Source: an uncultured virus (IMG/VR IMGVR_UViG_3300006145_000010) (lineage: Duplodnaviria > Heunggongvirae > Uroviricota > Caudoviricetes). Taken from it: a stretch of 64,000 nucleotides of DNA. Shown here one piece after another: positions 5,615 to 40,261 of the stretch (position 1 is the stretch's first letter; every line of letters begins with the position of its first letter). The notes under the pieces are model-generated. The model was not told the DNA's origin. It worked only from the letters and a program-made list of their open reading frames with translations, and did no database searches. Where the stretch lies: the IMG/VR virus record IMGVR_UViG_3300006145_000010. One strand, written 5' to 3'. The position numbers and the translations under genes are program-made.

Positions 5615-5632
5615 TGGTGTGTGTGGGGGGGG

Positions 5633-11936: not shown

Positions 11937-11953
11937 GTTTCTCTATTCTTTCC

Positions 11954-15428: not shown

Positions 15429-15521
15429 TGCGGGTTTTCCCGGTGGTGTGGTATAGTCCGGGCCGTTGACGGCAGGGAAGGGCCCTGCCGTAACGCTTAA
15501 CCCCTAAATAGAAAGGTTTAT

Positions 15522-15587: not shown

Positions 15588-15664
15588 TCAAGCCCTCCCT
15601 CCCGAGTGCAAGCGGGAGGGAGGAAAAAGGGGTTGACGTTTTTCTTATATATGCTATAGGAGAA

Positions 15665-15737
15665 TCAGCAGGGATTATAGAGCATCCCGCCTTTCTAAAT
15701 AAACCCCGCGCCGTTGCACCGGTGCGGGGCTTTTTTT
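15665..15737 (+). ncRNA. Candidate antitoxin sRNA (or 3' fold-back element) for the 15522 peptide
   Basis: TTGACG(15633-38)-16-TATAGG with extended TG; ATAGAGCAT and CCTTTCTA are complementary to the peptide start and SD; terminator at 15704-15737. Confidence 0.6.
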
Positions 15738-15818
15738 GTGGAAGATTTTTCAGGAGATCCCGAACCAGGCGGACCGGTTTGATGCGGATGGTGTTCAACT
15801 GGAGAGCGGGGAAGAGTG

Positions 15819-16718: not shown

Positions 16719-16788
16719 GGGAATATATGGAAAGATATGTGAGAAAGGAAGTCAATGACATTCGGGCGTTGTGGCGGATGATAGCGGG

Positions 16789-16812: not shown

Positions 16813-17102
16813 TGAACCCTATTGTACAGGCTTATGTGGAAAATTATGATTTGCCGGATTTGCAGGGAATGCTGCGGGAAAAGCTGGCGATTCTGGAAGG
16901 GCGCAAGGAAATAACCGGGGCCTCCACAGGCGGCGGAACGTCCTACACCGCGCAGGAGACCATGAATTTAAAGGACCATATAGCCTGCTTGCAGGAGGCA
17001 ATCACGGTCAAGAAGATGGAGGAAGGGGATTTTTCCGGCCTGGCCGCCGCGGATGACGGCGTGCGGGAAGTGCGGTTTGACCATACCATAACACGCTTTT
17101 GA
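16812..17102 (+). CDS. Head completion protein (gpW position)
   Basis: Small ORF directly before the lambda-type portal. Confidence 0.6.
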   Translation: MNPIVQAYVENYDLPDLQGMLREKLAILEGRKEITGASTGGGTSYTAQETMNLKDHIACLQEAITVKKMEEGDFSGLAAADDGVREVRFDHTITRF

Positions 17103-17104
17103 CC

Positions 17105-18658: not shown

Positions 18659-18675
18659 CAGAACAGTAATAAGTG

Positions 18676-24400: not shown

Positions 24401-27028
24401 ATGAGCGAAGGCGCAGTTATTAAAATAGATGGTGATGCGAGCGGCTTTATTGCCGCAACGGAGGAAAGTAAGAGAGCGGCAAGCGGCATGTCCGAAGCCT
24501 TACAGGGGGCCGTGGGCGGAAGCACAGGGGAGGCCGTGAAGGGGCTGAAGGGCATGGATCAGGAGGGCCGGAAGGCGTGTAAACGGCTGAATGCGGGGCT
24601 TATCAATATGAGTGCCACTATTACGGCGGTAGGGGCCGGCATTAACGGCCTGCGGGCAGGCTGGGGCAAGTTTTCCGCCATGCTGGCGGGCGGGGATGAC
24701 CTGGAGAGAGTAACCCGGCGCATGGAGGCATTCACGGGCGGCGCGTCAAGCGCGGCGGAAGCGGCGCGGGATGTGGTGGATTTTGCTGATACGCCTCCAT
24801 TCGGGCTGGAGGAAACGCAACGGGCGGCGCAGTTGCTTCTTGGTTGCGGCGTCAGGGCGAGCGAGTTAAAAAGCACATTGGAGGCTCTTGGTAATGTGGC
24901 TGCGGGCGGCGGAATGAGTTTGGAGCAAATAGGCATCCGTCTTTCTAAAGCTTTCCAAACTGGCCGCGTAACTATGGAAGTTTTGGAGCCGCTAATGAAT
25001 AGCGGTATTAACGTTATGGGCGTGCTGGGTCAACGAACAGGAAAGACCAGGGCGGAATTGCAAAAGATGATGACGGAGGGAACAATTGGTTTCCGGGATT
25101 TGAAGGGGGCTTTAGTCTCCATGGGATCTGCCGGAGGGCAGTTTGCGGGAGCCATGGAGAAAAATACGCAGGACATTGAGAACAGGGTGGAGACCCTGAA
25201 AGGCAAGGTTGGGGCCTTGAGCCGGGTTTTTGCTGAACCGGTAACAGGCGGCATCAAAGATGCTATGGACTCCATAGGCGCGTCATGGTCCGGTCATGGT
25301 CCGGAGGTGGAGCGCGGCTTGAGGAAAACGGGCGAATTGCTGGGTCAAATCGTGAAAGCGGCCGCGCCTATTATTTCCGTAGTAGGAAAAGGGCTGGCAA
25401 CGGTAGCCGCGGGCGGCGATCGGCTTCACGGGATGCTCCGGAATGGAATTTTGGCGTGGGTAGCGTGGAAGGCGGCCGGCAGTTCCGCCGGGGCAGCAGT
25501 AGGTCAGGCTGTGCTGTCTGCGGGGAGGACGTGGCAAACAGGATTTAATAATGCGCTTGTGTTATCCGGGCAGAGGACGCGGAGCGTGATGGGGGATATA
25601 CAGGCATTAGGGGCTTCTGCTCGTTCGCAGGCGGCGCGGATGGGGGCTGCGTTTAAGGGGGTGGGGGCAAGTTTGGCTTCCGGCTTGAAGGGGCCGGCCA
25701 TTATGGGAGCTATTGCGGCTATTTCCGTAGCCGTGGAAGAGCTTTACAAGGCGAGCCATGAGGCAAGCGGGGTGGCCTCAAAGGGAGAAATGGACAAAAA
25801 GAAAAATTTCAAACGGTCTAATGATGATTTTGATGAACGCGTGTGGAAGATGGCCGGAGAGGCGGCCAGCAAGCAGGACGTGGGGCGCGTCATGGATGAA
25901 TATGACGCTGAAATTAAACGCCTGAAGCGCGAAGAAGAAGACCTGCTGGCGGAAGATCCGCTGGGGAGAATGACGGTTGCGGTGCAGGATAGGCTGGTGC
26001 TGTTGCAACGTGAGCGGAAGGAGTTGCAGCAGGTGGCGGAAGCGAACGCGAAAGCGGCGGAGACGCGGGAACGGGCGGCGCAGCGCGGGCAGCAGACGGA
26101 AGAGGCACGGAAGAAGACGCTGGAGAAAATCAGGGAAATACAAGATGAATTGTTATCCCTGGATTATGACCGGGCGGAAGAAGAGAGGGAGAGGCGGCGC
26201 AGCGGAATGGGGCTGGAGGACCGGAAAAAAGACCTGCTGGGAGGATATGGGAGCATGGAGGGCCTCAAGAAGGCCATTGCGGAGCAGAAAGCCCTGCTGG
26301 ATGGCGGGGACGCCGTGGACGGCATGTTGAATCTGGAGGGGGTGGAATCCAGAATCAAGAGCCTGTATGAATTGCTTGGCAAGGTGGAAGAGGTGGATCG
26401 TGAAATAGTGGAGCGGAATAAGGAATGGGACAAGGCGGAAGCCAAACACCAGAAGCAGGCTGCCCTGCTGCGCGCGGAAATTCACGGGCAGAAGGATAAG
26501 CTGCGCGTGTTGCAGGAGCAGGCGCGCGTGCTGGAGCTGCAAAACCAATATGAGGCGGATGGCATGAGCAAGGCCCGCGCCGGCGCGGCGGCCCGTGAAA
26601 TAGCCGCCCTGGAGCAGAACAGGAACCGGGCGCAGACCGGGCGCGAATACCGCCGGCAAATGGCCCTGTTGAAAGCTCAGGCGGAGGGAAACAAGGCGGA
26701 AGAGCGGCGGCTGAAGATGGCGGAGCGCATGAAGGAAATTTATGACCAGCAGCGCGGCTTGGGGATAGACAGGAAGACGGCCATGAGGCGTGCCCGCGGC
26801 ATGGCCGGGTTGGAGGATATGGTGGAGCGGCGGAAGGACCGGAAGGAAGGGAGCGGACCCATAGCGGACAGTCTGGCGCAAGTGGGCGGCGGGGGCCGCT
26901 CCATGATGGGGAGCATGCCGCAACTTACGGAAGCGAGGAAGCAGACAAATTTGCTTCAGCAGATCGTGAAAAACACGGGCGCGGGGCGGAGGGAAACCCT
27001 GAAAACGGCGGCCAGGCTGGGATATTGA
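24401..27028 (+). CDS. Tape measure protein
   Basis: FADTPPFGLEE...LGNVAAG tape-measure domain; Ala/Gly-rich, coiled coil. Confidence 0.9.
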   Translation: MSEGAVIKIDGDASGFIAATEESKRAASGMSEALQGAVGGSTGEAVKGLKGMDQEGRKACKRLNAGLINMSATITAVGAGINGLRAGWGKFSAMLAGGDDLERVTRRMEAFTGGASSAAEAARDVVDFADTPPFGLEETQRAAQLLLGCGVRASELKSTLEALGNVAAGGGMSLEQIGIRLSKAFQTGRVTMEVLEPLMNSGINVMGVLGQRTGKTRAELQKMMTEGTIGFRDLKGALVSMGSAGGQFAGAMEKNTQDIENRVETLKGKVGALSRVFAEPVTGGIKDAMDSIGASWSGHGPEVERGLRKTGELLGQIVKAAAPIISVVGKGLATVAAGGDRLHGMLRNGILAWVAWKAAGSSAGAAVGQAVLSAGRTWQTGFNNALVLSGQRTRSVMGDIQALGASARSQAARMGAAFKGVGASLASGLKGPAIMGAIAAISVAVEELYKASHEASGVASKGEMDKKKNFKRSNDDFDERVWKMAGEAASKQDVGRVMDEYDAEIKRLKREEEDLLAEDPLGRMTVAVQDRLVLLQRERKELQQVAEANAKAAETRERAAQRGQQTEEARKKTLEKIREIQDELLSLDYDRAEEERERRRSGMGLEDRKKDLLGGYGSMEGLKKAIAEQKALLDGGDAVDGMLNLEGVESRIKSLYELLGKVEEVDREIVERNKEWDKAEAKHQKQAALLRAEIHGQKDKLRVLQEQARVLELQNQYEADGMSKARAGAAAREIAALEQNRNRAQTGREYRRQMALLKAQAEGNKAEERRLKMAERMKEIYDQQRGLGIDRKTAMRRARGMAGLEDMVERRKDRKEGSGPIADSLAQVGGGGRSMMGSMPQLTEARKQTNLLQQIVKNTGAGRRETLKTAARLGY

Positions 27029-27063
27029 AATAGCCGCTAAATGATAGAGAGATAATAATAAAT

Positions 27064-27795
27064 ATGGGAAGAAAAATTAACATTAAGAAGCGGGAAACGC
27101 ATGAAAAGACGCTGGAAATAGAACGGGGGGATGAAGGGGAAGTAAGGGCTGTGGGGAGGATTGTTTACACGGACAATCAGGAGGGCTGGAATGCCCGATG
27201 CCCGTCAATAGGGTCCGCTTATCCTGATGATGCCGCTTTGAGGCTCAAAAAGATAAGCATGGAAGGAATGGAGGGGGATATGGTGAGGGTGACGCTCTAT
27301 TACGAGTTGCCGCGGGAAACGTCTTTTGAATTCGGTGGAGGGGAGGAAGTGGAATATTCCATGGATTATTCCTGCTCTGAACAGCCGTTGCTGACGCATC
27401 CGGCCTTTCAGGATATAGACGGAGAAGAAAAAGATGCGTTGATGGCTATGGCGTCCGGGGCTTCTCCTAAAGATACGTTCGGGCAAGATGATAAGGTGAT
27501 TGAGGATGCCGTGAAATCGGAGGCCGGGAAGAAGGCCATGGAAAAGATGCGTAAAGGGCAGGTTAGTTTTTTGTGTCCCGGAGGGGTTTTTTCCGTCACT
27601 TCTACCGTTCAGGCGTTGAGCATGGCCGGGGTTGGAAAAAAAGGGGCTCCGGGCAGCGGCGCGCCCGCAGTAAGCGGAAAATATAATTGGATCAAAGAGG
27701 GCGTGAGCGGCCGGAGGACGGGAACCGGGAATTGGCGTCAGACGGTTTCCTGGAGGTTGAGCGGGCCGGATGGCTGGGATTCTGATTTGTATTGA
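27064..27795 (+). CDS. Distal tail/tail tip protein
   Basis: Follows the tape measure; EQPLLTHPAF motif. Confidence 0.55.
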   Translation: MGRKINIKKRETHEKTLEIERGDEGEVRAVGRIVYTDNQEGWNARCPSIGSAYPDDAALRLKKISMEGMEGDMVRVTLYYELPRETSFEFGGGEEVEYSMDYSCSEQPLLTHPAFQDIDGEEKDALMAMASGASPKDTFGQDDKVIEDAVKSEAGKKAMEKMRKGQVSFLCPGGVFSVTSTVQALSMAGVGKKGAPGSGAPAVSGKYNWIKEGVSGRRTGTGNWRQTVSWRLSGPDGWDSDLY

Positions 27796-27798
27796 CTT

Positions 27799-29661
27799 AT
27801 GATTAGCTGGCCGTTTTTTAATCAAGGGGAAGAGTTGAGCGCGTCTAAGTTGAGGCGTCTGGTTAAGGGGTGCCGGGAGCTGGAGCAGTTGGCTAAATCT
27901 TGCCGCTTGCAGAACGGGGTTGGTTACACGTTTAACCGGGGGCTGGGCGGCACGTCATTAACCATAAGACCAACGGGGGGAAGGAACAAAGCAGGAGAAG
28001 GCGAGCCGTTTACGCTGAAGAGGCTGGAAAAGGGGGATGCGGGATATAAGGCGTATTTCTGGCCCGGCATGGTTTTTGAAGTGCATCCGGGAGGCGTGCG
28101 GCGCATTAAGCCGGAACTTAACGGGGAAAAGATGGATCAGGCGGAGGAACCGCCTTTTTTATCCGTTCAAGGAGGGGATAAGGTATTTTTGTATCTTGAG
28201 CGGAGCGCGGATAACCATGATTGCATTACTTATGCGGAAGTGACGGCGGAGGAAATAGGGCTGGCGCGCGCGGTCAGAATTTATCTTGGGGAATTCAAGG
28301 AAGAAACGAATGAAGCCGGAGAAAAGATCCTGAAGTATCATGAGGCGTGGAGCGGCCATGTCCATTACGCGCAAAGCTCATTGAATGAAGGTTGGAGGGT
28401 GGTAGTTGATACGGATGAAGAGGGCGCGCCGGATATGGCCTATGTGAAGAAGGGCGATATTTACATAGCCGGGCAACTGGCGCAGCGCGGCGGGGGCACC
28501 TGGGAGGTGGCACCGAAAGAAGAGGGGGAAATTTGGCTGGAAGTGAAATGCACCGGGGATGGCGTCATTAAAAGTGCGGAACTGAAAGAAACGAAAGGAT
28601 CTTCCAAGCCGCTCCAGTATGTAGCGGAACCGGATGATGAAGAAGCCGAAGAGGAATTCACTTATTGCTTCCTTTTGGCGAAGGTGGAGAAGATTGAAGA
28701 ACCCTTGCCGGAGGATGGTAATTTGCCGTCTCTGGTATCGGTAAAACAGTATGCCCTGGGAGCGGTTTATTGCGGGGTTGCTCCTGATGAATTGGGGTTG
28801 AAAGCCGGGAAGGGGATAGAGATTGTGGATTCAGCGGAAGAGCGGGAAAAAGAAATTGCCGCTCTTATCGAGGACGCAAAGGAACCTTCCAGCGGAGATT
28901 GTTCCCTGATTTATGAAGAAGAGGAAGGCGCGGGGGAGGGTGAAGAAGGCGGTGAAAAAGGGAACAAGGGAAAACCTTACAAATTCAAGCTTTTGTGTGC
29001 TTCTGATGATTCTGTGTTGCTCAAAGAAGAAGATGGACGCATTTATTTTTCCGCATCCGGTAAAATGCCGGAAGCGGGGGATGGTCTTGAATATGAAAAG
29101 CAGCAGAACGGAGAAGGAATGGAGGAAGAAACTGATATATTAAAAATAAAAATTGATTCCTCCGTAGGTTCCAGCGTGGATGATGGCGGGAAATGGCCGG
29201 TGAATTTGTCCGTATCTCCAGCCGGGCTAAAGGGGGAATTGGATTTGACTGTGGACACGCAGAAGCATGACGTGGGCGGAGGCTATAAAGTGGGCTTGTC
29301 TGCGGCGGACAGGGGTACTTTGTCTTTGGAAGTAACTCCCGGAACTCCGGAAGAATCATTGTCGTTCCGTGCTCCACTCCGTCAAAATGGGAAATATGTG
29401 ATTCTGGATTATGAATCAAGTTGGTCTGATGCCGTCAACGGTGTGAAGGCAGGCCTGTTTCTGCGGAATAATAAATTGGCTGTGGAGCTGTACGCAGACA
29501 CGGAGCCGGATGGCTCTGATAATCTTATAAGCGATTCATGGACAGTGTTGGCTTGCGATAGCGACCACGCAATACGCCTGCACCGAGATGAAAACGGAAA
29601 AATCTATATCCAGCAGGGGGGCTGGGTTGTAACCTCCAAAATTTATACACCGATAAATTGA
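27799..29661 (+). CDS. Acidic tail tip protein
   Basis: 620 aa in the tail module. Confidence 0.55.
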   Translation: MISWPFFNQGEELSASKLRRLVKGCRELEQLAKSCRLQNGVGYTFNRGLGGTSLTIRPTGGRNKAGEGEPFTLKRLEKGDAGYKAYFWPGMVFEVHPGGVRRIKPELNGEKMDQAEEPPFLSVQGGDKVFLYLERSADNHDCITYAEVTAEEIGLARAVRIYLGEFKEETNEAGEKILKYHEAWSGHVHYAQSSLNEGWRVVVDTDEEGAPDMAYVKKGDIYIAGQLAQRGGGTWEVAPKEEGEIWLEVKCTGDGVIKSAELKETKGSSKPLQYVAEPDDEEAEEEFTYCFLLAKVEKIEEPLPEDGNLPSLVSVKQYALGAVYCGVAPDELGLKAGKGIEIVDSAEEREKEIAALIEDAKEPSSGDCSLIYEEEEGAGEGEEGGEKGNKGKPYKFKLLCASDDSVLLKEEDGRIYFSASGKMPEAGDGLEYEKQQNGEGMEEETDILKIKIDSSVGSSVDDGGKWPVNLSVSPAGLKGELDLTVDTQKHDVGGGYKVGLSAADRGTLSLEVTPGTPEESLSFRAPLRQNGKYVILDYESSWSDAVNGVKAGLFLRNNKLAVELYADTEPDGSDNLISDSWTVLACDSDHAIRLHRDENGKIYIQQGGWVVTSKIYTPIN

Positions 29662-29666
29662 TAAAA

Positions 29667-30440
29667 ATGAATTACGCAATATTCTGTTATAGAGAAGATT
29701 ATAAATGCCTTGAATTGTGCGTTAAGCAAATTCGGCGGGCGGATTGTAATGCCAGAATTTATTTATTTGATGACGGGGCGCGCCCGTTAGAGCCGGGGCA
29801 GATACCCGCGGGGAAGGATGTGAGTTACAAAGTGACGTATTTTCCCCGGCGTGGAAATTTGAATGGTCTGGAATGTGTGCGGGGCATCCTGGGCTGCATG
29901 CTGGATATACCGGGCAAAGAGCCTGTGGTGAAGATAGATGCAGATACCTTGCTTATGGATAAAGCTGAAATTGTCCGATCCCTGAAAGAGCGGAACAAGC
30001 TTGCCGGGGGCATGCAATGTGCCGAGCCTCTGGCGTGGAGCGGTTGTTGCTACTGGATGACCAGGGCCGCCATGAGGGATGCTCTGGAGCTATTGGCGCA
30101 AAGGGAATGGCCGGAGGGGAAGCAGAAGTACCCGGAAGATGTGACGATCTCTCAAATTGTGACTTATCTCTACGGGAGGGAAGGCGTAGATATGCTGGAG
30201 TTCCGCGGAGGGCGTCATTTAATCGGTGTACGGACATGTGATCCGTCCCTGCTGGTCAAGATTGCGGAAATTGCCAAGAGCGGGGTATGTGTCGCTCATT
30301 GCGGGCAGATGTCTTTTTACCGGCAATTTCAAGAGCAATATGGGGAGACGCTGCGTGAAGCGTGCGCGCGGGTGATGTGGTGGATATTGCATGCTAGCGG
30401 TCCTGATTCCAAGACTTTTGAAAAAGCTCCTGAAGGGTAG
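29667..30440 (+). CDS. GT-A fold glycosyltransferase-like protein
   Basis: YLFDDG, VKIDAD (DxD) and PEDVTI motifs. Confidence 0.6.
   Translation: MNYAIFCYREDYKCLELCVKQIRRADCNARIYLFDDGARPLEPGQIPAGKDVSYKVTYFPRRGNLNGLECVRGILGCMLDIPGKEPVVKIDADTLLMDKAEIVRSLKERNKLAGGMQCAEPLAWSGCCYWMTRAAMRDALELLAQREWPEGKQKYPEDVTISQIVTYLYGREGVDMLEFRGGRHLIGVRTCDPSLLVKIAEIAKSGVCVAHCGQMSFYRQFQEQYGETLREACARVMWWILHASGPDSKTFEKAPEG
30416..30439 (+). promoter_or_regulatory. Phage A late-gene motif, copy 4
   Basis: Exact 24-bp match 2 nt before the tail fibre ATG. Confidence 0.75.
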
Positions 30441-30441
30441 G

Positions 30442-32400
30442 ATGGAGCTTTATTTGGATATTGAGAGCGGGATTTTTCGGAACCGCACGGGTGATGAAAA
30501 TATGAATTTGTGCGGGGTGCGTCTTGTCCGCAGGCAGGATGTGCCCGTGTCTTTATCCTTTTTGGGGCGTGAGCTTGAGGCCGGGCGCGTCACGTTGGCG
30601 GCCTATCATAAAAGTAACGGGCAGTTATTGGCTTACCAGGAAGGGCAAATAACGGGCGGGACCGTGGAAATGGTGGTTGATTTTGATACACAGGAAATAC
30701 GGGGGGCGGCCCGGGAAGCGGAGGGCAAAACTATAGAGGCGCGGGTGGCTGTGCTGGTGGAGACGGAGGAAGGGAAAGGTGTTTATCATTCTCTTCCGTT
30801 GAATTTCTATTTGGAGCCGGGGTTGATAGGAGATGAGCATTTGCCGAATTCTGCCCGGCCGGAATGGGAAATGATGTATGAAACTGTGTTGGAAAGAGCC
30901 GAAGAAACGGAAGGTTATGCAGGTTCCGCTTTGGCCTCCAAAAGGGCCGCCGCCGCTTCCGAGGCCGCCGCCGGCACGTCCGCAACCAACGCGGCCCGTG
31001 ACGCTAAGAGTGCCCATGAAGCTAAAACGGCTGTGGAGTCGCTGGCTACCACTTGGCCGGAAACGGTCAGCAATGGAAAGCAACAGATTATTGAGGCCAA
31101 GAATGAGGCTGTTACTGCTATTCAGGACAAGCAAGCCAATTCTGTTCTTGCCGTGGGGAGAGCACAAAAAACTGCTACGGATAAGATTTCCGGAGCGCAG
31201 GCGGGCGCCGTTTCCGCCGTTCAGGCGGCGGGAAAGGAAGCGCAAGGAACAATCACGCCCCTTGTCCAACGTGTCGAAACCGCTAAAGAGGCTATAGATC
31301 AGGCGGAGGGTCGCATCAATACGGCCGCGACTAATGCCGCGAATTCTGCCACTAGCGCGGGCAACTCTGCAACAGCGGCGGCTAATGCTCTGGCGGCTAT
31401 TCCGCAGGTGGACGAATCCGGCAACATGACGCTTCCCGGCAATATCACTGCCGCGGGAGGCACGTTTGACGGGACCGTCAACGCCAACGGCGGCATCAAC
31501 ATCCCGCTGGCCGTGGGGGCGCCGACCAATGAATCCGGCGTTAATCGCCTGTACGCTTCCGGGCTGGCCGCCGTGACGGAGGCGTTTTCTCCTCAGAGTT
31601 TCCTTTCTGATTTTAATTTGTACGGCGAGAGCGTCGCCGTAGAACAGACGGTTCCCGGCCAGGTGTGGCGACTCCGCAAGATGTCCGCATATCCGGGAAC
31701 AATTCAGATTAACCTGATAAATCCATTTTTAGGAGTATCCAATTATTCTGGATGGAGCGGGTTTGTCCTGCCAGTCGCTTTGGGCAATACCGGCAGTACT
31801 GCCGCCCGCAAACTGACTTTCTCGTTGGGAAGGCCGGGAAATTTCGTCAAGAAGACGGCGGCGGAGATGGATATGTTCACGCTGTCTCCGGCCTCCGGTA
31901 GTACCGCGAGTTTCCCGCGGTTTGTTGATGTGACGTTTTACATGGTTAATGACGCGTCCATGAATCCGGCGGGTTATCCGGTGAGGGTGAGGGAACTCGT
32001 CTATGATTCCACTCAGGCCAAGTGGTTATGTTATGAAACGCTTTCCGTTTTCCCGTCCACCAATACCAACCCGTCCTGCAATATGTTTCTTTCTTATCAA
32101 CAGGATAGGCCGGGCCGCGACGTCAGAGCGGGATTGTGGATTGGCTCTAATGCGGCGGATTCTCGCCGTTTGTTGTGCATTGCCGACATGCACGGCGTTG
32201 TTGACACGTTCTCCTGGACTGGCGTTGGGGCTTTGTATTGGGATAGCGACGGGACCAATACGCATAGTTATCTTGGAGCGATGCGGCAGATGACGGCTCC
32301 GGGGTATAACCAGCCTAATGGGGCTTATGATGCGTTCCGGGCGTTGGAAACCCGGTTGATACAGTCAACCACCGTAACAGAATTTACACCTTATGAATAA
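30442..32400 (+). CDS. Tail fibre / receptor-binding protein
   Basis: N-terminal anchor, Ala-rich coiled shaft (ASEAAAGTSATNAA), beta-rich C-terminal head. Confidence 0.8.
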   Translation: MELYLDIESGIFRNRTGDENMNLCGVRLVRRQDVPVSLSFLGRELEAGRVTLAAYHKSNGQLLAYQEGQITGGTVEMVVDFDTQEIRGAAREAEGKTIEARVAVLVETEEGKGVYHSLPLNFYLEPGLIGDEHLPNSARPEWEMMYETVLERAEETEGYAGSALASKRAAAASEAAAGTSATNAARDAKSAHEAKTAVESLATTWPETVSNGKQQIIEAKNEAVTAIQDKQANSVLAVGRAQKTATDKISGAQAGAVSAVQAAGKEAQGTITPLVQRVETAKEAIDQAEGRINTAATNAANSATSAGNSATAAANALAAIPQVDESGNMTLPGNITAAGGTFDGTVNANGGINIPLAVGAPTNESGVNRLYASGLAAVTEAFSPQSFLSDFNLYGESVAVEQTVPGQVWRLRKMSAYPGTIQINLINPFLGVSNYSGWSGFVLPVALGNTGSTAARKLTFSLGRPGNFVKKTAAEMDMFTLSPASGSTASFPRFVDVTFYMVNDASMNPAGYPVRVRELVYDSTQAKWLCYETLSVFPSTNTNPSCNMFLSYQQDRPGRDVRAGLWIGSNAADSRRLLCIADMHGVVDTFSWTGVGALYWDSDGTNTHSYLGAMRQMTAPGYNQPNGAYDAFRALETRLIQSTTVTEFTPYE

Positions 32401-32812
32401 TTCAGAAATACAGATTCAGTTCCCCCGGCCCGGCAACTGGCAGGAATTCACCCTGACGCCCATTTACCGGGACGCGGGCGGTTATAGACCTCCGGCCCGC
32501 TTTAATCAGGACGATATACCCGCGGATCAGGCTCCGGCCATGGAGGCCGTCGTTGCCGCGCTGGTTGGACTGGCGGAACCGTGGCTGGCGGTGCAGGTGT
32601 GGGCGCGGCTGAAAGAGTTTTACGCTCCGGAGGAGGATGACCCCATGCGGACGGTGGAAGCCGTGGATTTGACCGTGGAGGCCGTTAATCCCCACGGGGG
32701 ACGCAGGGTGTTCACTGCCCGTGACTACCCGGCTTTTATCCTGACCGACCTCGCCGCCGTGGCGTTTTTCAATTTCTTCACTACCCCTACCAATAACAAC
32801 ATAATCAAATGA
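32393..32812 (+). CDS. Tail-fibre-associated protein
   Basis: Overlaps the fibre gene end. Confidence 0.55.
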   Translation: MNNSEIQIQFPRPGNWQEFTLTPIYRDAGGYRPPARFNQDDIPADQAPAMEAVVAALVGLAEPWLAVQVWARLKEFYAPEEDDPMRTVEAVDLTVEAVNPHGGRRVFTARDYPAFILTDLAAVAFFNFFTTPTNNNIIK

Positions 32813-33276
32813 CTACTAACAATCAATGCAATCACGCGGAGGCAATAGCTAAGGACCTGTACCATACCTATGCCATCGCCAAGAACCTGTCCACGCATAG
32901 GCCGATGCTGGAATACGCTGACCTTTCGGACGATGATAAGGCCGGATGGCTGGCTGTTGCACATCAAGCGCTACCAACCATTGCAGAACATGCGATGGAA
33001 GATGTAAGGAGCTACCTCACCGGGCAGGCCAAGACCTCCACCGGCTGGAAGAAAGCCCTCTATTGGGCCGGGGTGGGTATTGTCGGCGCCATCCTTGGCG
33101 GTTTGGGAATGTCCCTCTCCGGCTGCGGGCACTCCGTGGACGTGACGCCGGAAAAGACGGTGGTCTGCAAAGACGGCTCCTGCCTCGTCATTGAGCAGGG
33201 GCATATCTCCTACAGTCAGGCCCAGCCGGAAACGGACGTTCCGCCCGTTGTTCAGATCGTACCTTCCAAGAAATAA
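32809..33276 (+). CDS. Lysis-module membrane protein with internal lipobox-like LSGC
   Basis: TM segment ALYWAGVGIVGAILGGLGMSLSGC. Confidence 0.55.
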   Translation: MTTNNQCNHAEAIAKDLYHTYAIAKNLSTHRPMLEYADLSDDDKAGWLAVAHQALPTIAEHAMEDVRSYLTGQAKTSTGWKKALYWAGVGIVGAILGGLGMSLSGCGHSVDVTPEKTVVCKDGSCLVIEQGHISYSQAQPETDVPPVVQIVPSKK

Positions 33277-33280
33277 GGCC

Positions 33281-33508
33281 ATGTGCAAACCCCTCAAGGA
33301 ATATCTGGGAGTGATCCGCGATTATACGCGTGAGATCGTCACTTTCGGCGGTTTTGTGATAGCCGTGTTCATCTACCTGGATTTCCGCGAGGTGGTGAAG
33401 GAACAGGCTACCAACGCGGCCCATACGGCGGAGATCCTGCGGACGATGGATACCCGTCTCCAGCATTTGGAGAATTACCACCAGCAACAGCTTAAACAGC
33501 GAGATTAA
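33281..33508 (+). CDS. Holin-like single-TM protein
   Basis: IVTFGGFVIAVFIYL followed by a coiled coil; upstream of the amidase. Confidence 0.55.
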   Translation: MCKPLKEYLGVIRDYTREIVTFGGFVIAVFIYLDFREVVKEQATNAAHTAEILRTMDTRLQHLENYHQQQLKQRD

Positions 33509-33577
33509 TTCCAACTGTAAAGTTTTTCTTACAAGTTCCCTTTATCTCATAGCCAATAGTTTATAACTTAATTAACC

Positions 33578-33763
33578 ATGCCGGAACGATACCTTTATTT
33601 ACTCGTCATTGAAACTCCCGGACGCAAGCAGGAGATGCACATGCTGCACAGCAGGAAGCAGCGTACAGCCTACAAAGCCCAACACGCGGAATGGCATCTC
33701 AACAGCACCTACGTGGAGTATGACTTGCCGGAACATCTTATTAACCAATACCTGAACAAATGA
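33578..33763 (+). CDS. Hypothetical protein
   Basis: ATGA-coupled to the amidase. Confidence 0.55.
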   Translation: MPERYLYLLVIETPGRKQEMHMLHSRKQRTAYKAQHAEWHLNSTYVEYDLPEHLINQYLNK

Positions 33764-34302
33764 ATATCGCTTTAGACATCGGACACGCCAAAGGAACCGG
33801 AGCTCGTGGAAACGGGCTGGAAGAGCACGACGTGGCATGTGTGATAGCACGCCATCTTTTTGCGCAGTTGAAGGATATGGGACATACCGTCCATGTTCTT
33901 GACTTTCCGGACAAAGGCAATACGGAAGACCTGAACGCCACCATCAAGGTTGCCAATGCGGACGGATACGACTTCGGTATTTCCCTGCATTGCGATTGCG
34001 CCCATGACAGACAGAATGCCTGTGGCGCTCATGTATGCTTTTATCCTGGATCTGTTCAGGGAAGCCGCCTGGCCGCCTGTATCGCCGAGCCTCTGGCAGA
34101 CCTTCTGCCGGGACGAGCCAATACGATTCAAGCCCGGCCGGGGCTGGCCATCCTCAAGCAGACTCGTATGCCATGGGTATTGTGCGAATGCGGGTTTATC
34201 AGTAACGCCGGGGATGCGGATATCATGAAGCATCATCCGGAGAGCATTGCCAACGCGATTGCCGAGGGCGTCCGGGATTTTACGGCGCAGGAGCTTGTTT
34301 AG
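33760..34302 (+). CDS. N-acetylmuramoyl-L-alanine amidase (Amidase_3) endolysin
   Basis: ALDIGH, EEHD, ISLHCD, LCECGFISN. Confidence 0.92.
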   Translation: MNIALDIGHAKGTGARGNGLEEHDVACVIARHLFAQLKDMGHTVHVLDFPDKGNTEDLNATIKVANADGYDFGISLHCDCAHDRQNACGAHVCFYPGSVQGSRLAACIAEPLADLLPGRANTIQARPGLAILKQTRMPWVLCECGFISNAGDADIMKHHPESIANAIAEGVRDFTAQELV

Positions 34303-34321
34303 TTGTTTTCCATTAGTTGTT

Positions 34322-34531
34322 ATGGGATCTATTTTCAAACCTAAAGTGACACAGGCTCCGGCTCCGCCGGTAGTAGAAGAGCCGCTGAATCCGACGGCTA
34401 CGGAGAAGTCTGTTTCCGATGCTTCGGAGGATGTTCAGACCAAAAGTAAGCGCAGGTTGAAGCTGTCCGATACGGTGAATAATCCGAATCTGTCCGGCGG
34501 TTTGTCCACGTTGCGCAAAACCCTGGGATAG
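34322..34531 (+). CDS. Small pre-portal virion protein of podovirus type
   Basis: MGSIFKPKV..PAPP...RKTLG, typical of the gene before T7/BPP-1-like portals. Confidence 0.7.
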   Translation: MGSIFKPKVTQAPAPPVVEEPLNPTATEKSVSDASEDVQTKSKRRLKLSDTVNNPNLSGGLSTLRKTLG

Positions 34532-34536
34532 CAGCC

Positions 34537-36186
34537 ATGGAGGTACGCGATTACATTTCCCTGGCAGATAATCTGCGCACGGAACGCGCCGCTTTTGAAG
34601 GCGGCTGGGATGAAATGCGCCGTATTATCATGCCCAGGGCTACGGGCAACGCTTATCCCGACCGCGTACCTGATCACAGCGGTGGATTGGAGCATAGCGA
34701 CGTCGCCAATAACAGCCTGAAGAAGCTGGCATCCGCCCATTTGACTTATATTACGCCTTTGGACAGGCGCTGGTTTACCTTGCGCCCGGTAGGTTTTAAT
34801 AAGGATGGGAATCAGGCTTTGAATGATTGGTACAGCAAGGTTACGGAGGTGATGGAGCGGGAACTTGCCGTTTCCAATTTTTATTCAGTGATTCATGAGG
34901 TTTACCTTGATCGCTGCCTGACGGGAACCGGCTGCATGTTTGCCGAGATGAATATTAACAGGCAGCTGATTTTCCGGCACATTCCCACGGGAACTTACGC
35001 TATCGCGGAGTCGGAGTCAGGGGATGTTGATACGCTGGTGCGCTGGTTCCGGCTGACGGCTCACCAGGCGGCGCAGAAGTGGAAGGAGGAGGCTCTGGGC
35101 CCAAAAGTGCGGAGAGCGCTCAAGGATGCCAGGAGACGCTATACGGATTCTTTCGAGTTTGTGCAATGCGTCCTGCCTAACCCGCAGGGCAAGCTGTTGT
35201 CCGACCATGTGCCGCCTGGCAAGAGAGCGTGGAAGGACGTCATTATTTCGTTGGACGATAAGAAGATTGTGTTTGAGAGCGGTTTTTTCGAATTTCCGTT
35301 TCTGGTGACGCGCTTTCTGCGCTGGGGAGACAGCCCCTACGGGGTGGGACCGGCATGGTTCGCGCGGCGCACGATCCGCATGGCTATCGACATGGAGAAG
35401 ATTCTTTACACGCTGGGACAGACAAAGGCTTATCCGAGGCTTTTCCTGCTGGCAGAGCAGTATGGGGAGGTGGATTTGCGCGCCGGAGGCAGGACCGTCA
35501 TTTCTCCGGAAGCGGCGGAACTTGGCTTGCCGCGCGAATGGGGCACACAAGGGGAGTATGATATCGGGCTGGAATACCTGCGGGGCCTGTACGCCAAGAT
35601 TGAAGAGGCTTTTTACGTTCCCATGCTGGAAACCGTTTCCCGCATCGACCGCCAGATGACGGCTACGGAGGTGGCGGCCCGGGAAGCCGAGAAGGTGCTT
35701 GGGTTTACGCCTTCTTTTACGTTGTTTGTGAGCGATTTCAGGATGATGTGCCAGCGTATTATGGCCCTGTTGTACCGCGCCGGGAAACTTCCGGAGCCGG
35801 TTCAGGGCGTGTTTGAGGTCAACCGGCGGGGCGCTCCTACACGCCTGGCCGTCCCCCAGGTTCAGTTCATGGGCAAGATTGCCCAGGCGATTGCACGTAC
35901 ACAGACGGACGGCTTGATGACGGCTCTTGAGTCTATCGGCACTTTGTCGCAGATGACCGGCCGACCGGAGCTGCTGGATATTGTGAATCTCAATAAGGCC
36001 GGGGAATTGATTTACGATTCCAAGGGCGCCCCGATGGAGTGCAAGGCGACAGAGGATGAGGTGAAGGAGAAGGAGACTGAAAGGAAGAATCAGCAGGAAG
36101 CGGCCATACAGGCAGCCATTGCCGAACAGTCCTCCGTGGCTAACAGGAATAATGCCCAGGCCCAGCAGGCTTTACAAACGACATGA
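34537..36186 (+). CDS. Portal (head-tail connector), T7/BPP-1 family
   Basis: WFTL, SNFYSVIHEVYLD..GTG, PYGVGP, MTATEV motifs. Confidence 0.92.
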   Translation: MEVRDYISLADNLRTERAAFEGGWDEMRRIIMPRATGNAYPDRVPDHSGGLEHSDVANNSLKKLASAHLTYITPLDRRWFTLRPVGFNKDGNQALNDWYSKVTEVMERELAVSNFYSVIHEVYLDRCLTGTGCMFAEMNINRQLIFRHIPTGTYAIAESESGDVDTLVRWFRLTAHQAAQKWKEEALGPKVRRALKDARRRYTDSFEFVQCVLPNPQGKLLSDHVPPGKRAWKDVIISLDDKKIVFESGFFEFPFLVTRFLRWGDSPYGVGPAWFARRTIRMAIDMEKILYTLGQTKAYPRLFLLAEQYGEVDLRAGGRTVISPEAAELGLPREWGTQGEYDIGLEYLRGLYAKIEEAFYVPMLETVSRIDRQMTATEVAAREAEKVLGFTPSFTLFVSDFRMMCQRIMALLYRAGKLPEPVQGVFEVNRRGAPTRLAVPQVQFMGKIAQAIARTQTDGLMTALESIGTLSQMTGRPELLDIVNLNKAGELIYDSKGAPMECKATEDEVKEKETERKNQQEAAIQAAIAEQSSVANRNNAQAQQALQTT

Positions 36187-36434
36187 AGACAGACCCCACC
36201 AATAAGTACGAACAGTACATGAAGCGCCGCAGAAGGATTTTCCGGGAAGCATTCAGGAATCCGGAAGTCCTGGAGGAGCTGAAGAGACATTTCCAGACCG
36301 ATCTTCCCTGTTTCCAGGGGAAGGCCGGTTCTTACGACCCCCTTGACGCTATGCGTCGAGACGCCTACCGCGAGGTGGTTTTGTTCATCGAAGCGGTCAT
36401 GGGCAATCATTACGAACCAGAAGAAGAGATATAG
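36183..36434 (+). CDS. Bbp19-like small protein
   Basis: FRNPEVLEEL...DAYREVVLFI; between portal and scaffold. Confidence 0.7.
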   Translation: MKTDPTNKYEQYMKRRRRIFREAFRNPEVLEELKRHFQTDLPCFQGKAGSYDPLDAMRRDAYREVVLFIEAVMGNHYEPEEEI

Positions 36435-36444
36435 AAGAAGTACC

Positions 36445-37197
36445 ATGATTTTATTTAAGTTGTACCATAACCGGTTTCTTTTTGAAGAGGCTCCGGAGAA
36501 TGGAGGCGGTGGCGGAGGAGGTTCCGCCGCCCCTTCCGCTTCCGGACGTCCCAGCCTGGCTAATCCTGCACCGGAGCCGACTCCGGCGGATGATGAGCAG
36601 CCGAACCCTCCTCCCCCATCGGATCCGGGTTCTCCGCAGGGAGATCCGCCTTCCCAGGGGGATTACGTGTTGACGTTCGATGATACGTTTTCTGGAGACG
36701 AGACGCTGCAGCAGTTGCTGACCGAGACCGGCAAGGCCCACGGGCTTCCTGTCGAGGGGCTTTCCGCGTTTATCAAGGATATGGATGCGCGTCTGGCGGC
36801 CAAAGCGACCGAACAGAAGCAGGCGCAGGATGCCGCCATGGAAGAGGCCTGGAGACAGCTGGATGGAGAGTGGGGCCGGGACAGCGACGCACGCCAGATG
36901 CGCGCCGTTCAAATGGCCGGGAGGTTGTGCCGCATGGCCGGTATCGACCAGAGCGTGTTTAATGAGATGGGCATTGCCGATCATCCGGCCATGTACAGGA
37001 TTCTGGATGCAGTAGGCCGGATTCTGGACGAGCCGGCTCTTCCGGCGCCTCCCGGACGGCAGGAACAGCAGGCCCGCGGCGAAGCCCGGCGCATGATGCA
37101 CGATCCGGAACACCCGGATTATTCGGCATTCCACGATTGCGACCATCCGCGTTTTGCCGAGGTGAGGGCCAAGTATATGCGACTGATGGGTGCGTAA
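36445..37197 (+). CDS. Scaffolding protein
   Basis: Pro/Gly-rich N-terminus, LDGEWG, DHP motifs; terminator at 37218-37252. Confidence 0.75.
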   Translation: MILFKLYHNRFLFEEAPENGGGGGGGSAAPSASGRPSLANPAPEPTPADDEQPNPPPPSDPGSPQGDPPSQGDYVLTFDDTFSGDETLQQLLTETGKAHGLPVEGLSAFIKDMDARLAAKATEQKQAQDAAMEEAWRQLDGEWGRDSDARQMRAVQMAGRLCRMAGIDQSVFNEMGIADHPAMYRILDAVGRILDEPALPAPPGRQEQQARGEARRMMHDPEHPDYSAFHDCDHPRFAEVRAKYMRLMGA

Positions 37198-37250: not shown

Positions 37251-38390
37251 TTAAGGAAGAAGTTCCGGTAGGGATTCCGCAGCGGAGCGCAGCTGATCCA
37301 CGGAGGGGCGGATGTACACGCTATGCACGGCGGAAGAGTCATGCCCCACCAGCTCCATGGCCAGCCCCTGCGATACGCCTGATGCCTGCAACAACGTGGC
37401 CGCCGTGGCCCGAATGCTGTGGAAGGACTTGCTGTTCATCCTCCTTCTGCGGCCGCCGGCCGCTCCATGCACCACGCCGATGCCATGGGTGCGCAACAGG
37501 AGGCCGAATTGATAGGACGCGCCATCCCCCAGGGCCAGCAGGGGCGCGTGAAGTAGTTCATCCGCCGGTTCCCCCGCTTCCTTCCAGCGGGCAAGCGCCC
37601 ATTGGTAAAAGCCTTCTCTCATGGGCTGGTCCATCCAGCGCCCCGTTTTGCCCGTGTCAAAGCGCACGATGCGGCGTTCCCAGTCAAACTGATTCCAGTT
37701 GAGGCGCAGAATATCCCCCAGCCGCTGGCCGTAGGTTTCAAACGAGCAGCGTACCGCGGAACTCCACAGGGGCGGGAAATGCTCAATCATGTAGCGGATC
37801 TCGTCGAGTGTGAAGGCTTCCTTGTGCAGCTTTTCCCCGGCACGGTCCGGGGGAATGGAAACGCCGGCGCACGGATTGCGGTCAATTACTTCTGAATCCA
37901 CGGCATCCGCGAATGCCTGGGAAAGAACGGACATATCCTTGTACACAGTCTTTTGCCGCACCAGTTCGCGGCGAGCCGCCACAAAGCCTTTGATGTCCGC
38001 CTTGGTGATCAGGCGAAGGGGGGCGTTCGCCCGCGCCCCCAGATACTCGTAAAAATGCTTGCAGGCGGTTCTGGCATTGTAGGCCGTCTGTTCGGAGACA
38101 AGAGCCGCCTTGCGCCCAACAAATCCGTCACACCAAGTCCGCACGGAAACATTGTTGTGCACCTGGTATTCTTCCGCTTCCGCGCAGGCTATCTGCACGC
38201 CCCGCTGGTAGGCGATACGTTCCGCCAGCTTGGCCGTGATGCGGTCTCCCTCGAACTCGCCGCCATTCACAGGAACTTTCGTGGAACGGCGCTTCATCTT
38301 GCCGTCCGGCCCCTGAAATGTCACCATCCAGTAGGGCGAGGATTTTTCCTTGTTGATGGACAGACGCCCCTTGTAAAAAGGTTTGCTCAT
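37251..38390 (-). CDS. int: Tyrosine integrase (phage B)
   Basis: GQRLGD (R), SFHSIR, VGH and VY motifs; N-terminal SPYW. Confidence 0.9.
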   Translation of the reverse strand: MSKPFYKGRLSINKEKSSPYWMVTFQGPDGKMKRRSTKVPVNGGEFEGDRITAKLAERIAYQRGVQIACAEAEEYQVHNNVSVRTWCDGFVGRKAALVSEQTAYNARTACKHFYEYLGARANAPLRLITKADIKGFVAARRELVRQKTVYKDMSVLSQAFADAVDSEVIDRNPCAGVSIPPDRAGEKLHKEAFTLDEIRYMIEHFPPLWSSAVRCSFETYGQRLGDILRLNWNQFDWERRIVRFDTGKTGRWMDQPMREGFYQWALARWKEAGEPADELLHAPLLALGDGASYQFGLLLRTHGIGVVHGAAGGRRRRMNSKSFHSIRATAATLLQASGVSQGLAMELVGHDSSAVHSVYIRPSVDQLRSAAESLPELLP

Positions 38391-38508
38391 ACCTGTAATA
38401 TCTTCTGTAATGGTTTTGTAATAAGGTTCGCGTAAGAAAACCTACACGAACCTTATTCATAATCCCCTACGTTATCAAGGTTTACGTAGGTTTTCTTACA
38501 GAAACTTT

Positions 38509-38524
38509 TGGCGGAGAGAGTGGG
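38509..38524 (-). other. attP core of phage B: tRNA-Ser-like 3' end
   Basis: Reverse complement CCCACTCTCTCCGCCA; (C/T)TGTAA arm-type repeats at 38393, 38405, 38416, 38560, 38571. Confidence 0.7.
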
Positions 38525-38675
38525 TGTTAAGTTTATTTCTATAAATAATTTGCTTCAATTTGTAACACTTCTGTAACGTCTGTATGACAGAGACAAGATG
38601 CCGAATTGGAGATTCTGCAACTGAATTGACACTCGGCAACTTGCAAATGTGCGGTTTCTGTCCCCTGATGGAAGC

Positions 38676-39644
38676 ATGCCAAGTAATTACACTTTACCCA
38701 TCTCCGATCTTTATCAGGAGACTTACGATAACCAGTGGCAGGAGCAGGTTCAGCAGGCTACGTCCCGCCTGGAACGTTTCTGCGTGATCAAGTCCGGTTT
38801 GACGGGCAAGCTCCAGGAGTTCAGTTTTGTCGGTACTACGGAGCTGAATGAGAAGCAGGGCCGGATGCAGGATATTGTGTTGGACGAGCTTGATTATTTC
38901 AAGCGCCGGATGCTGCCGGTTAGTTTTTCGAAGCATTTGGGCTATGATGAGGATGACGATATTTTCCTGCACGGCCTGGACGCTCCCGTGACGCAGACGA
39001 TTAACGCGCTGAAGTACGCGGCTGCCCGCAAGATGGACGATGTTTTGTTCGGCCTGAAGAAGCAGGGAGGGGTATATGTGCCGTCCAAGGGCGGCATTTT
39101 CGGGACGGCGTTTGCCGGCAATGACGGCATGGAACAGCTGGAATTGCTGGAGGCTAATGTGGTGGCAGTCGATTATACCGGCGGCACGGCTAAGGATTGC
39201 CCGCTGACGATTGAGAAGCTGAACCGTGGTATTACGCTGCTGCAGGAGAACGGGATTCTGGATGATGCTTCCAATGCCTACGGCGACCAGGTGTGCTGCG
39301 CGATTACTCCCCGCATGCGCGAGGCCCTGATTAATGACGAGCGTCTGCAGAAGGCGGATTTCGGTTTTTCCTCCCTGCGCAAGAGCAACGGCGCCCTGGA
39401 TCCGATTATGGGGATTCAGTTTATCATTGCTCCCAATTTGCCGCTTGACGAGGACGGGGATATCATTTGCCCGATGTGGATGAAGAATTCCCTGTATTTC
39501 GGTTCTTGGAAGCAGAATAAGGTGACGGTGGAGAAGCGCTCCGATAAGGAGGACACGATCCAGATCGGCCTTAAGACGATTATGGGAGCCACCCGCATGC
39601 GCGAAGAGGCGTTTGTGCAGATTAAGTGCAAGCAGCTTTCTTAA
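38676..39644 (+). CDS. Major capsid protein (phage B)
   Basis: QQATSRL, AAARKMDDV, GATRMREE motifs of BPP-1/N4-like capsids. Confidence 0.85.
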   Translation: MPSNYTLPISDLYQETYDNQWQEQVQQATSRLERFCVIKSGLTGKLQEFSFVGTTELNEKQGRMQDIVLDELDYFKRRMLPVSFSKHLGYDEDDDIFLHGLDAPVTQTINALKYAAARKMDDVLFGLKKQGGVYVPSKGGIFGTAFAGNDGMEQLELLEANVVAVDYTGGTAKDCPLTIEKLNRGITLLQENGILDDASNAYGDQVCCAITPRMREALINDERLQKADFGFSSLRKSNGALDPIMGIQFIIAPNLPLDEDGDIICPMWMKNSLYFGSWKQNKVTVEKRSDKEDTIQIGLKTIMGATRMREEAFVQIKCKQLS

Positions 39645-39676: not shown

Positions 39677-40132
39677 ATGGCAACGTATCAAACAGTTATT
39701 GCAGAGAAACAGCTTGCCCTTGCGGATCGGACCGGCCTGCCGACGGTGCCGCAGCTGGCGGCCATCCATACCGGCGCCGGGGTCCATGTGGCTACGGCGG
39801 AGTTCATCATGCCCGCGTCCCTGGCGGCCGATGACCTGATCGCCATTTGCAATGTTCCCTGTGGAGCCCGCGTGCTGCCGCAGCTTTCCCATGTCGTTTC
39901 CGAAGGCGTGGGGACGCTGCAGCTGACCGTGGGAACGAAGGAGGCGGCGGATGCTTTTTCCGCCTCCCTGACCGTGACCGCCGCCGGGACTTATCAGTTG
40001 ACGAAGGGTTCCCAGGCGGTTTCCACGGGGCCGGTGGATGCTGTGACGATGGTTTACGCGAAGGTGGGCGGAACACCGGCGGTGACCGCCGGCAAGAAGC
40101 TTGTTTTTGCTATTGCTTACGGTATTCAGTAG
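39677..40132 (+). CDS. Capsid decoration/cement protein (putative)
   Basis: Follows the capsid gene; VPCGARVL beta-sandwich pattern; terminator at 40157-40188. Confidence 0.6.
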   Translation: MATYQTVIAEKQLALADRTGLPTVPQLAAIHTGAGVHVATAEFIMPASLAADDLIAICNVPCGARVLPQLSHVVSEGVGTLQLTVGTKEAADAFSASLTVTAAGTYQLTKGSQAVSTGPVDAVTMVYAKVGGTPAVTAGKKLVFAIAYGIQ

Positions 40133-40261
40133 TTTTTTTTCCGTCGGTTTGTCCATAGGGCCGTCTCTGCATGGAGGCGGCCCTTTTTGCTGTTCCGGAG
40201 AAGAAACGTTGATTTTCGCCAACTTGCCCCGGTTGAACGCCCTGGGTTATGTTCAGGGGAA

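Follow-up and report, generated by a model that had tools for sequence, protein, structure and literature searches.

A siphovirus and a podovirus of Akkermansia meeting in a shared tail-fibre sequence: assembly join or recombinant genome

Akkermansia phage Moulinsart (ON453896), an induced prophage of Akkermansia muciniphila YL44, is a temperate siphophage of about 31 kb. Its description states that YL44 carries three prophages that are induced in mice, and describes Moulinsart as induced there (PMC10197239). The present analysis concerns the uncultured virus record IMGVR_UViG_3300006145_000010, whose whole stretch of 64,000 nucleotides is called the window, and in which a siphovirus with the same host genus as Moulinsart (phage A) passes into a podovirus (phage B) inside a single tail-fibre open reading frame (ORF). 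On balance, we regard this A-to-B join as probably an assembly path across a repeat shared by co-resident phages. The large terminase of phage A is 51% identical in amino acid sequence to that of Moulinsart, and positions 29384-30058 match Moulinsart at 79% nucleotide identity. However, most of phage A has no nucleotide match to Moulinsart; the two are distinct at species level, A having an early region of its own and an attachment (att) site in tRNA-Cys. The cassette that follows the fibre gene matches Akkermansia phage Chantilly (ON453895) at 88% nucleotide identity over 32393-33538 and phage DTMo-2021a (CP084202) at 84% over parts of 31447-33290. Neither matches the head, tail or early genes of B, nor those of A, and the shared cassette thus moves among Akkermansia phages.

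The nearest named relatives of the phage B portal (PF12236) belong to BcepC6B-type Burkholderia podophages and Pelagibacter podophages of the HTVC010P group, which are of similar size (34-42 kb). With these best named portals only 26-28% identical to its own, phage B is without a close named relative in the phage collection, and it differs from both groups in the position of its integrase gene and attP between the scaffold and capsid genes. Akkermansia is the host of both phages; three Akkermansia phages match segments of 29.4-33.5 kb in the window at 79-88% nucleotide identity, and the SecA protein adjoining prophage B in a sister-sample record (G003) is identical to an Akkermansia SecA.

Two kinds of exchange between phage genomes offer comparisons for the join. 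In double lysogens of int-minus lambda, one exchange between homologous regions produces a pair of hybrid joints and does not disrupt attP. In the present case, a siphovirus would have to recombine with a podovirus with which it shares only fibre-cassette sequence. Exchange of tail-fibre modules between unrelated phages was reportedly described by Haggard-Ljungquist and colleagues in 1992, as evolutionary mosaics and not as whole-genome fusion. The present locus resembles such exchange in that a phage-type-specific N-terminal anchor is combined with a distal fibre and downstream gene shared across morphotypes, and the fibre boundary at 30898 is found both in the A loci and in 12 of the 23 B loci. 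A whole-genome fusion through the fibre patch, should one exist, would be a new variant of general-recombination insertion into a resident prophage.

The A-to-B switch and the two attachment sites

The region in which A turns into B contains the following features.

30391-32400 (alternative start 30442), plus strand: chimeric tail-fibre ORF
30898-31332, plus strand: stretch of the fibre gene in which A-type and B-type are homologous yet distinct (76-86% nucleotide identity), the window being A-type
31333-31414, plus strand: 82-base core, shared without mismatch by A-type and B-type fibre genes, with the A-to-B switch inside
31415-33276, plus strand: B-type fibre C-terminus (receptor-binding part) and two small genes, 100% identical to G003 (locus L080)
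32393-32812, plus strand: small ORF, 139 amino acids (aa)
32809-33276, plus strand: small ORF, 155 aa, with a hydrophobic stretch and a lipobox-like LSGC
33281-33508, plus strand: small ORF, 75 aa, with one hydrophobic stretch, possibly holin- or spanin-like
33578-33763, plus strand: small ORF, 61 aa
33760-34302, plus strand: Amidase_3 endolysin of phage B (PF01520)
34537-36186, plus strand: portal of podovirus B (PF12236, 4e-87)

A sequence-only reading of the window had described the tail operon of A as running, without an att site or host DNA, into fibre, small lysis-type genes, amidase and the portal of B, and this order was confirmed, with contiguous coding and no gaps at the A/B joint. 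The position of the junction is corrected here, as it does not lie at the portal (34537). Mapping with a 100-base identity profile and an alignment placed the switch at 31333-31414, inside the fibre ORF, where no att-like sequence or tRNA was found. The last A-specific bases in the alignment are 31326 and 31332, and the first B-specific base is 31415. At the protein level, residues 1 to about 341 of the chimeric fibre are A-type (97-99% identical to the fibre of locus L031 in the N-terminal part), and the protein from about residue 298 to its end is 100% identical to the B fibre of G003. The A contigs L024-L026 are 100% identical to the window over 24401-30440 and on to their own ends at 31293, 31405 and 31206, respectively, and other A relatives are identical to it up to 31414. 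On the other side, prophage B of G003 (L078-L080) is 100% identical from 31333 to the record end at 33276, and the B contigs L001 and L005 are 100% identical from 33300 on.

The fibre C-terminus, small genes and amidase that follow the switch are, judged by these identities, B's own late genes. The ORFs of 75 and 61 aa (33281-33763) are 100% identical to L001 and L005, and the amidase is contiguous with portal B in five of 23 B loci (L001, L003, L004, L005 and L010), other sequence being present elsewhere; its position is a variable slot in B. None of the 23 loci with relatives of portal B matches the window left of 30890, and A tail genes never lie upstream in them. In 12 of the 23, the window is first matched at 30890-30898, within the fibre ORF, and G003-type B late-region sequence lies directly upstream of the fibre boundary in 12 of the 23. 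Among 42 loci with A-type tail genes, 13 extend into homology to the window start, six of them by 230-539 bases only, and L054 alone matches the B portal region, via a divergent portal.

Runs containing window sequence are mouse and rat gut metagenomes. Four mouse-gut runs from one study cover 98-99% of 27000-36000 and may be the source, whereas other runs cover about half. X1 and X3, which may be the source, and two further runs (X5 and X6) were examined as Logan contigs, which are built on 31-letter words and for that reason cannot link the two sides of the 82-base core. Depth over 31385-33246 is single-copy (22-26 in X1 and 35-39 in X3), which ruled out that A and B carry identical copies of the entire 30.9-33.6 kb cassette; contig depth over 33276-33547 is about double in X1 and X3. 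The sequence-only reading had proposed a crossover in a fibre/lysis segment shared by the two phages, at 31-33.5 kb. The genomes do meet in shared fibre sequence, but over 82 identical bases, and a shared module of 31-33.5 kb is not supported because 31415-34537 is B's own in this population (G003, L001 and L005). The crossover idea is thus right on the kind of place and wrong on size and partners.

Both att sites had also been read as intact attP, and the ends of homology in relatives bear this out.

4205-4234: attP core of phage A, intact, at the 3' end of tRNA-Cys
38507-38524: attP core of phage B, intact, at the 3' end of tRNA-Ser

In the A relatives L031, L036, L040 and L043, homology to the window ends at 4234 inside tRNA-Cys. 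Record G007 matches window 4205-5994, beside the integrase gene, with its positions 10848-12626, and window 1-4234 with its positions 39699-43931. As relatives stop at 4234 and restart at 4205, 4205-4234 is the A core, unsplit in the window. The homology of B relatives ends at 38524 in tRNA-Ser (L018) or at 38511 in tRNA-Gly genes (L011, L015, L016 and L023), and G003 reads host genes including SecA and then B from 38507 on. As L018 stops at 38524 and G003 starts at 38507, 38507-38524 is the B core, likewise unsplit. L008, from another sample series, runs from the integrase gene through the intact B core to the capsid gene at 99.4% identity, and the circular form of B has thus been seen independently.

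Phage A is described here as a temperate cohesive-end (cos) siphovirus of Akkermansia of about 34 kb, integrating at tRNA-Cys and represented by window 1-31414 in circular order. Its relatives L029, L031, L036, L037, L040, L041 and L043 match the fibre to 31450-31592 and continue with a variable part, the cassette, the M15 endolysin gene and window 1-4234, showing that A is circularly permuted in the window and that, past the fibre, it properly runs on into the M15 gene with whose end the window opens. Phage B is a temperate Akkermansia podovirus of about 42 kb, integrating at tRNA-Ser and represented by window 31333-64000 plus about 9 kb beyond it, with early genes and its own fibre N-terminus.

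Assembly join and recombination as explanations of the record

The arrangement from A to B is as first seen, and it is more likely than not that no such fused molecule exists. Neighbouring records bear on this. G001, a virus record of 79,528 bases, contains window 1-61354 at 100% identity. Upstream of it lie 18,174 bases in which a third siphophage, termed A2, is represented by its late operon (the two terminase subunits, small and large, then portal, protease and tail genes, a fibre of 551 aa, the cassette and the M15 endolysin). The sequence-only reading had inferred a two-phage figure-of-eight cointegrate, for which a second fibre/lysis copy was to be sought upstream. Such a copy exists (G001:14996-18403), though it is 72-87% similar and lies within the A2 late operon, not in a B early region or reciprocal product; the record is thus a chain of three phage pieces. 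G003 (79,411 bases) shares the A2 late operon, mismatch-free over 15.6 kb, and continues with an early region (E2) with an integrase gene, 12 kb of host genes, and B at its att site. G001 and G003 diverge within a 939-base identical run in the cassette/M15 region. In G001, G009 and G010, the A2 late operon is followed by the early region of A. G011 gives yet another order, namely B early genes, B fibre N-terminus, the core, 60 A-type bases, the C-terminal part of an A2-like fibre with cassette and M15, then E2 and an integrase gene; its right arm is a third allele, distinct from those of G001 and G003. The circle of a two-phage cointegrate does not close, since the sequence upstream of the window (G001) is the A2 late operon and not B early genes, fibre and A's M15, and since the right arm of G011 leads to E2 and not to window position 1. 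An origin of G011 by chromosomal inversion between the inverted A2 and B fibre genes of G003 was rejected, as the core with 60 A-type bases is absent from A2 and B. No contig-end overlaps of at least 20 bases were found among nine contigs compared, and record ends at gene boundaries (33276 and 38390) were taken as cuts at record definition, not contig ends.

For the preferred reading, an assembly join, we propose the following scenario. The fibre genes of A and B are homologous from 30898 on and identical for 82 bases, and the record would pass from A to B there, the assembler picking a path through sequence common to co-resident phages. For two circular genomes meeting at one repeat, the figure-of-eight would be a feature of the assembly graph and not of the cell, and we infer that no single molecule carries the A-to-B order. 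The chain would go on upstream, where the A2 late operon is joined to A via the 939-base identical run in the M15 region. This reading is favoured because the joint falls exactly on a repeat shared by both genomes, because the second joint lies in a 939-base repeat beyond any short-read method, and because sister contigs pair the same pieces differently (G003; G001, G009 and G010; G011). In addition, two complete genomes with both attP would measure about 76 kb, fitting neither capsid, and the presumed unpackageability of such a product is a further reason. Repeats in mosaic phages are a cause of fragmented assemblies and chimeric contigs, as stated in the Phables paper (PMC10104058), which favours the same reading. 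The locus shares with such chimeric contigs a join in sequence common to co-occurring phages, at which sister assemblies break or pair differently.

The distribution of the joint argues in the same direction. The exact 82-base core occurs in 14 loci among viral and metagenome contigs, joining A to A in six, B to B in six and B-left to A-right in two, with no case of A-left to B-right, a form for which the window and the near-identical G001 are the only examples seen. With near-identical records left out, a 130-base sequence spanning the A/B junction had no match in viral contigs or in metagenome contigs, and the species-representative genomes contained neither a match to the core nor a relative of portal B. 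The exact chimeric fibre protein was found on six contigs, all from JGI/IMG, as a cluster of one (longest contig 152,989 bases), and the exact reciprocal fibre on one contig of 586,096 bases, from JGI/IMG only. The exact parental B fibre, by comparison, was found on 22 contigs, which come from NCBI, ENA and JGI and reach up to 351,545 bases in length. As only one assembly source yields the chimeric and reciprocal fibres and the parental forms are widespread, an assembly path is again favoured, the junction not being reproduced in independent data or pipelines. The 23 portal-B loci, none with A tail genes upstream, and the 42 loci with A-type tail genes, of which only L054 shows any match to the B portal region, point the same way. 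The figure of 351,545 bases is also that of the longest contig for the A terminase, the G003 SecA and both M15 forms, which suggests an independent assembly with A beside unrecombined B.

Several observations weigh against an assembly join. An exact direct repeat of 116 bases in B is traversed in G001 and in G003 alike, with the same sequence order, which argues that the assembler could cope with 82 bases; since repeats longer than that could be resolved, reads linking A-left to B-right may exist. The locus differs from ordinary chimeric contigs in having a repeat of only 82 bases in contigs that cross a longer one, and simple repeat collapse is therefore not proven. Within the sister series, the A-type right arm, which occurs in five viral contigs overall, is present only in G011 and G012 (L092 and L094), where it is paired with B-left in two of two, and pairing of A-left with A-right occurs in no contig, the pattern to be expected from a reciprocal crossover. 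A single consistent linear order can also be put together from G001 and G011. The contig depths of A and B are nearly equal in X1 (27.5 and 29.3), and the RecT and YqaJ-type exonuclease encoded by B could catalyse exchange at short homology.

Most of these observations also favour the alternative that the window is a real product of homologous recombination, which we regard as possible but less probable than an assembly join. In this scenario, a circular B would have crossed over with A inside the 82-base core, perhaps helped by RecT and the exonuclease, yielding A-left with B-right, as in the window, and B-left with A-right, as in G011 and G012. Both attP sites would remain intact because no integrase was used, and recombination between the repeats on either side would restore the parental forms present in G003. 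The shared homology at the joint fits this scenario, and both reciprocal joints have been recorded, one in the window and G001, the other in G011 and G012, although the latter come from other samples and linkage on the same molecule is not implied. The length of the contig carrying the reciprocal fibre indicates a chromosomal location, and the assembler followed both attP sites in preference to attL or attR. Natural mosaics also exist at the same spot, as L033/L098 combines an A-type tail with different sequence on either side of this core. On the other hand, the recombinant is seen in one assembly source and one sample series only, with no matches elsewhere. Furthermore, the depths of A and B, which the sequence-only reading had proposed comparing, are not locked at 1:1, being 28.5 and 37.3 in X3 (ratio 0.76), and a right end of A is integrated normally at tRNA-Cys in a sister sample (L077).

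Other arms are also present in the possible source runs. The Logan contigs of X1 and X3 are fragmented over 31050-33547. One exits the window at 31414 into an A-type right arm, whereas the contig covering A-left is interrupted at 31050, a point at which more than 31 bases are common to A and B, fitting the presence of B-left. These arms count against a recombinant, but both the A-type arm and the break would be expected likewise from the reciprocal recombinant, and the depths of the four arms are too noisy to separate parental from recombinant pairing. A occurs at about 500-fold depth in X5, with no B apart from one short piece, and X6 contains A with its native right arm and a B variant from 34284, with no cover of 31704-34106.

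With a second homologous insertion in the M15 region, recombination would give a nested prophage array of about 106 kb, in the order A2 late operon, A early region, A late genes, core, all of B, core, A-right, E2 and integrase gene. It is rather unlikely that the record is true in this sense, that is, as an array in mouse-gut Akkermansia with B whole inside an A prophage and the composite in turn lodged within a third prophage by crossing over in the endolysin region, with both reciprocal joints, two unused attP sites and the capacity to revert to the parental phages. Such an array needs two nested rare events along with coexisting parental forms, and the third allele in the right arm of G011 is that of neither G001 nor G003. 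Of the figure-of-eight cointegrate, then, the reciprocal joint stands, in two sister-sample contigs, while the three-phage chain and the unequal depths speak against it; and of the two origins that the sequence-only reading had left side by side, a real intermediate or an assembly chimera, the chimera is the slightly better reading.

Integration of B into or beside A by site-specific recombination, as tandem or piggy-back prophages, is very improbable. Tandem integration could explain the attP-like joint of A (4205-4234) between the late genes of the third phage and A. However, the A-to-B switch lies in the fibre gene, in sequence with neither an att-like site nor a tRNA, and site-specific insertion of B is excluded for the A/B joint because the B attP is whole, sits unsplit between the integrase and capsid genes, and is about 7.1 kb away. 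That the window is one large hybrid phage with siphovirus and podovirus structural sets is hardly credible despite the gapless coding at the joint, given two complete and unrelated sets for head, packaging, integration and lysis, each found alone as a 33-45 kb prophage in many records, and a combined length far above the genome of either relative.

Gene content of the two phages

The two portals, terminases, capsids, integrases and endolysins listed by the sequence-only reading were recovered in family scans, except that the A capsid is named by position only. The phage A part of the window contains the following features.

2-229, plus strand: 3' end (final 75 residues) of the M15 endolysin gene (PF13539, phrog_17001)
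4269-5351, plus strand: integrase (PF00589, phrog_1)
13310-15055, plus strand: large terminase, lambda GpA type (PF05876/PF20454)
17099-18631, plus strand: portal, lambda family (PF05136)
18673-19794: ClpP-type protease (PF00574)
19850-20812: capsid, named from its position, without a family match
24401-27028, plus strand: tape measure (PF20155)
up to 30440, plus strand: distal tail genes

The GpA-type terminase, portal, ClpP-type protease and tape measure mark phage A as a lambda-like cos siphovirus, and its tail morphology is predicted accordingly from these genes. The M15 gene is the end of the lysis module on the siphophage side and comes after the fibre cassette in A relatives. A tRNA-Glu(ttc) gene lies at 11861-11936, just ahead of the A terminase genes, and a 99% identical copy lies in the opposite direction on the host side of attL in G007 (10749-10824). 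Between the terminase and portal genes, a 1.7-kb island (15028-16742) with two minus-strand genes encodes products of 134 aa and of 299 aa with DUF2971; it is present in G008 and missing from the relative G007. The early region contains a HicB-like antitoxin gene at 11026-11397.

G001 begins right after a motif (AAGGAATCT..TTT.. then GGGGCC..GATCG), and this motif recurs ahead of A's small terminase gene at about 12440-12480 in the window. It is a possible cos site and physical DNA end. Apart from this kind of short motif near both terminase genes, no DNA-level repeat is shared by the start of G001 and the end of G009 at 12328.

The phage B part, beyond the portal given above, contains the following features.

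36343-37197: scaffold-like gene
37251-38390, minus strand: integrase (PF00589, phrog_1), between the scaffold and capsid genes
38649-39644: capsid (PF19821)
43648-45261: terminase-like gene
38649-64000, plus strand: rest of phage B, including tail and tail-tube-type proteins and early genes
within 38649-64000: 785-aa protein with a lysozyme/glucosaminidase domain
49312-59139: giant 3275-aa virion-type protein with an ART-PolyVal ADP-ribosyltransferase domain at residues 1747-1890
61160-61921, minus strand: CI-like repressor

The PF12236 portal, the PF19821 capsid and a tail-tube-type protein mark phage B as a T7-portal-type podovirus, a morphology predicted from gene content. Family scans also matched phrog_332, phrog_3437, phrog_376 and phrog_394 in phage B and gave no tape measure or sheath match in 34537-64000. 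The exact portal protein is found on 527 contigs, the longest of 3.02 Mb, and window 38649-64000 is 99.95% identical to the integrated prophage B of G003. The part of B outside the window, read in G003, encodes RecT, a YqaJ-type exonuclease, a Dam-type methylase, a small terminase and a 678-aa fibre, with the RecT and exonuclease pair at G003 68630-71246, just past the window end.

The integrase gene and attP of B (37251-38649) lie between the scaffold and major capsid genes, and relatives use tRNA-Ser or tRNA-Gly. Because of this attP position, integration splits the head-gene cluster, with the capsid gene at one end of the prophage and the portal, scaffold and integrase genes at the other. 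The direct repeat inside B (49720-49917 and 59753-59950) is 94% identical over 198 bases, with an exact 116-base core at 49771-49886 and 59804-59919 in G001 and G003 alike; its copies flank the 3275-aa gene, one near its start and one just past its end. The guanine-cytosine (GC) skew of the plus strand is strongly positive (0.15-0.35) across window 1-64000, independently of the coding strand, and drops to about 0 at 31-34 kb and 36-39 kb, within the segment of B from fibre to attP.

A comparable gene order was observed in G002 (53,192 bases; L054, L066 and L085-L087), a record from another series in which a siphophage tail and fibre are followed by a cassette, an endolysin and a podovirus portal 44% identical to that of B. 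G002 has a 3305-aa ORF at the position matching the 3275-aa protein of B. Its siphophage part is common to five of nine other loci compared at 98-99% identity up to the fibre, and three more share most of it; none of the nine continues into a portal.

Implications for Akkermansia phages

Three results hold whether the join is an artefact or a true molecule. First, Akkermansia harbours a podovirus without a close named relative, with an attP that splits its head-gene cluster. Second, it harbours a siphovirus related to Moulinsart. Third, the fibre cassette from 30898 on is shared by two morphotypes, and its 82-base core marks a recombination hotspot. If the join is an assembly artefact, the window record and G001 (79.5 kb, rated 100% complete) would be chains of two or three phages and not one virus each, and the fibre cassettes common to Akkermansia phages would be places where such chains form. 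If the join is true, whole phage genomes would lodge in one another via very short homology in a gut commensal, and the record would offer a direct view of a captured intermediate of module exchange between morphotypes.

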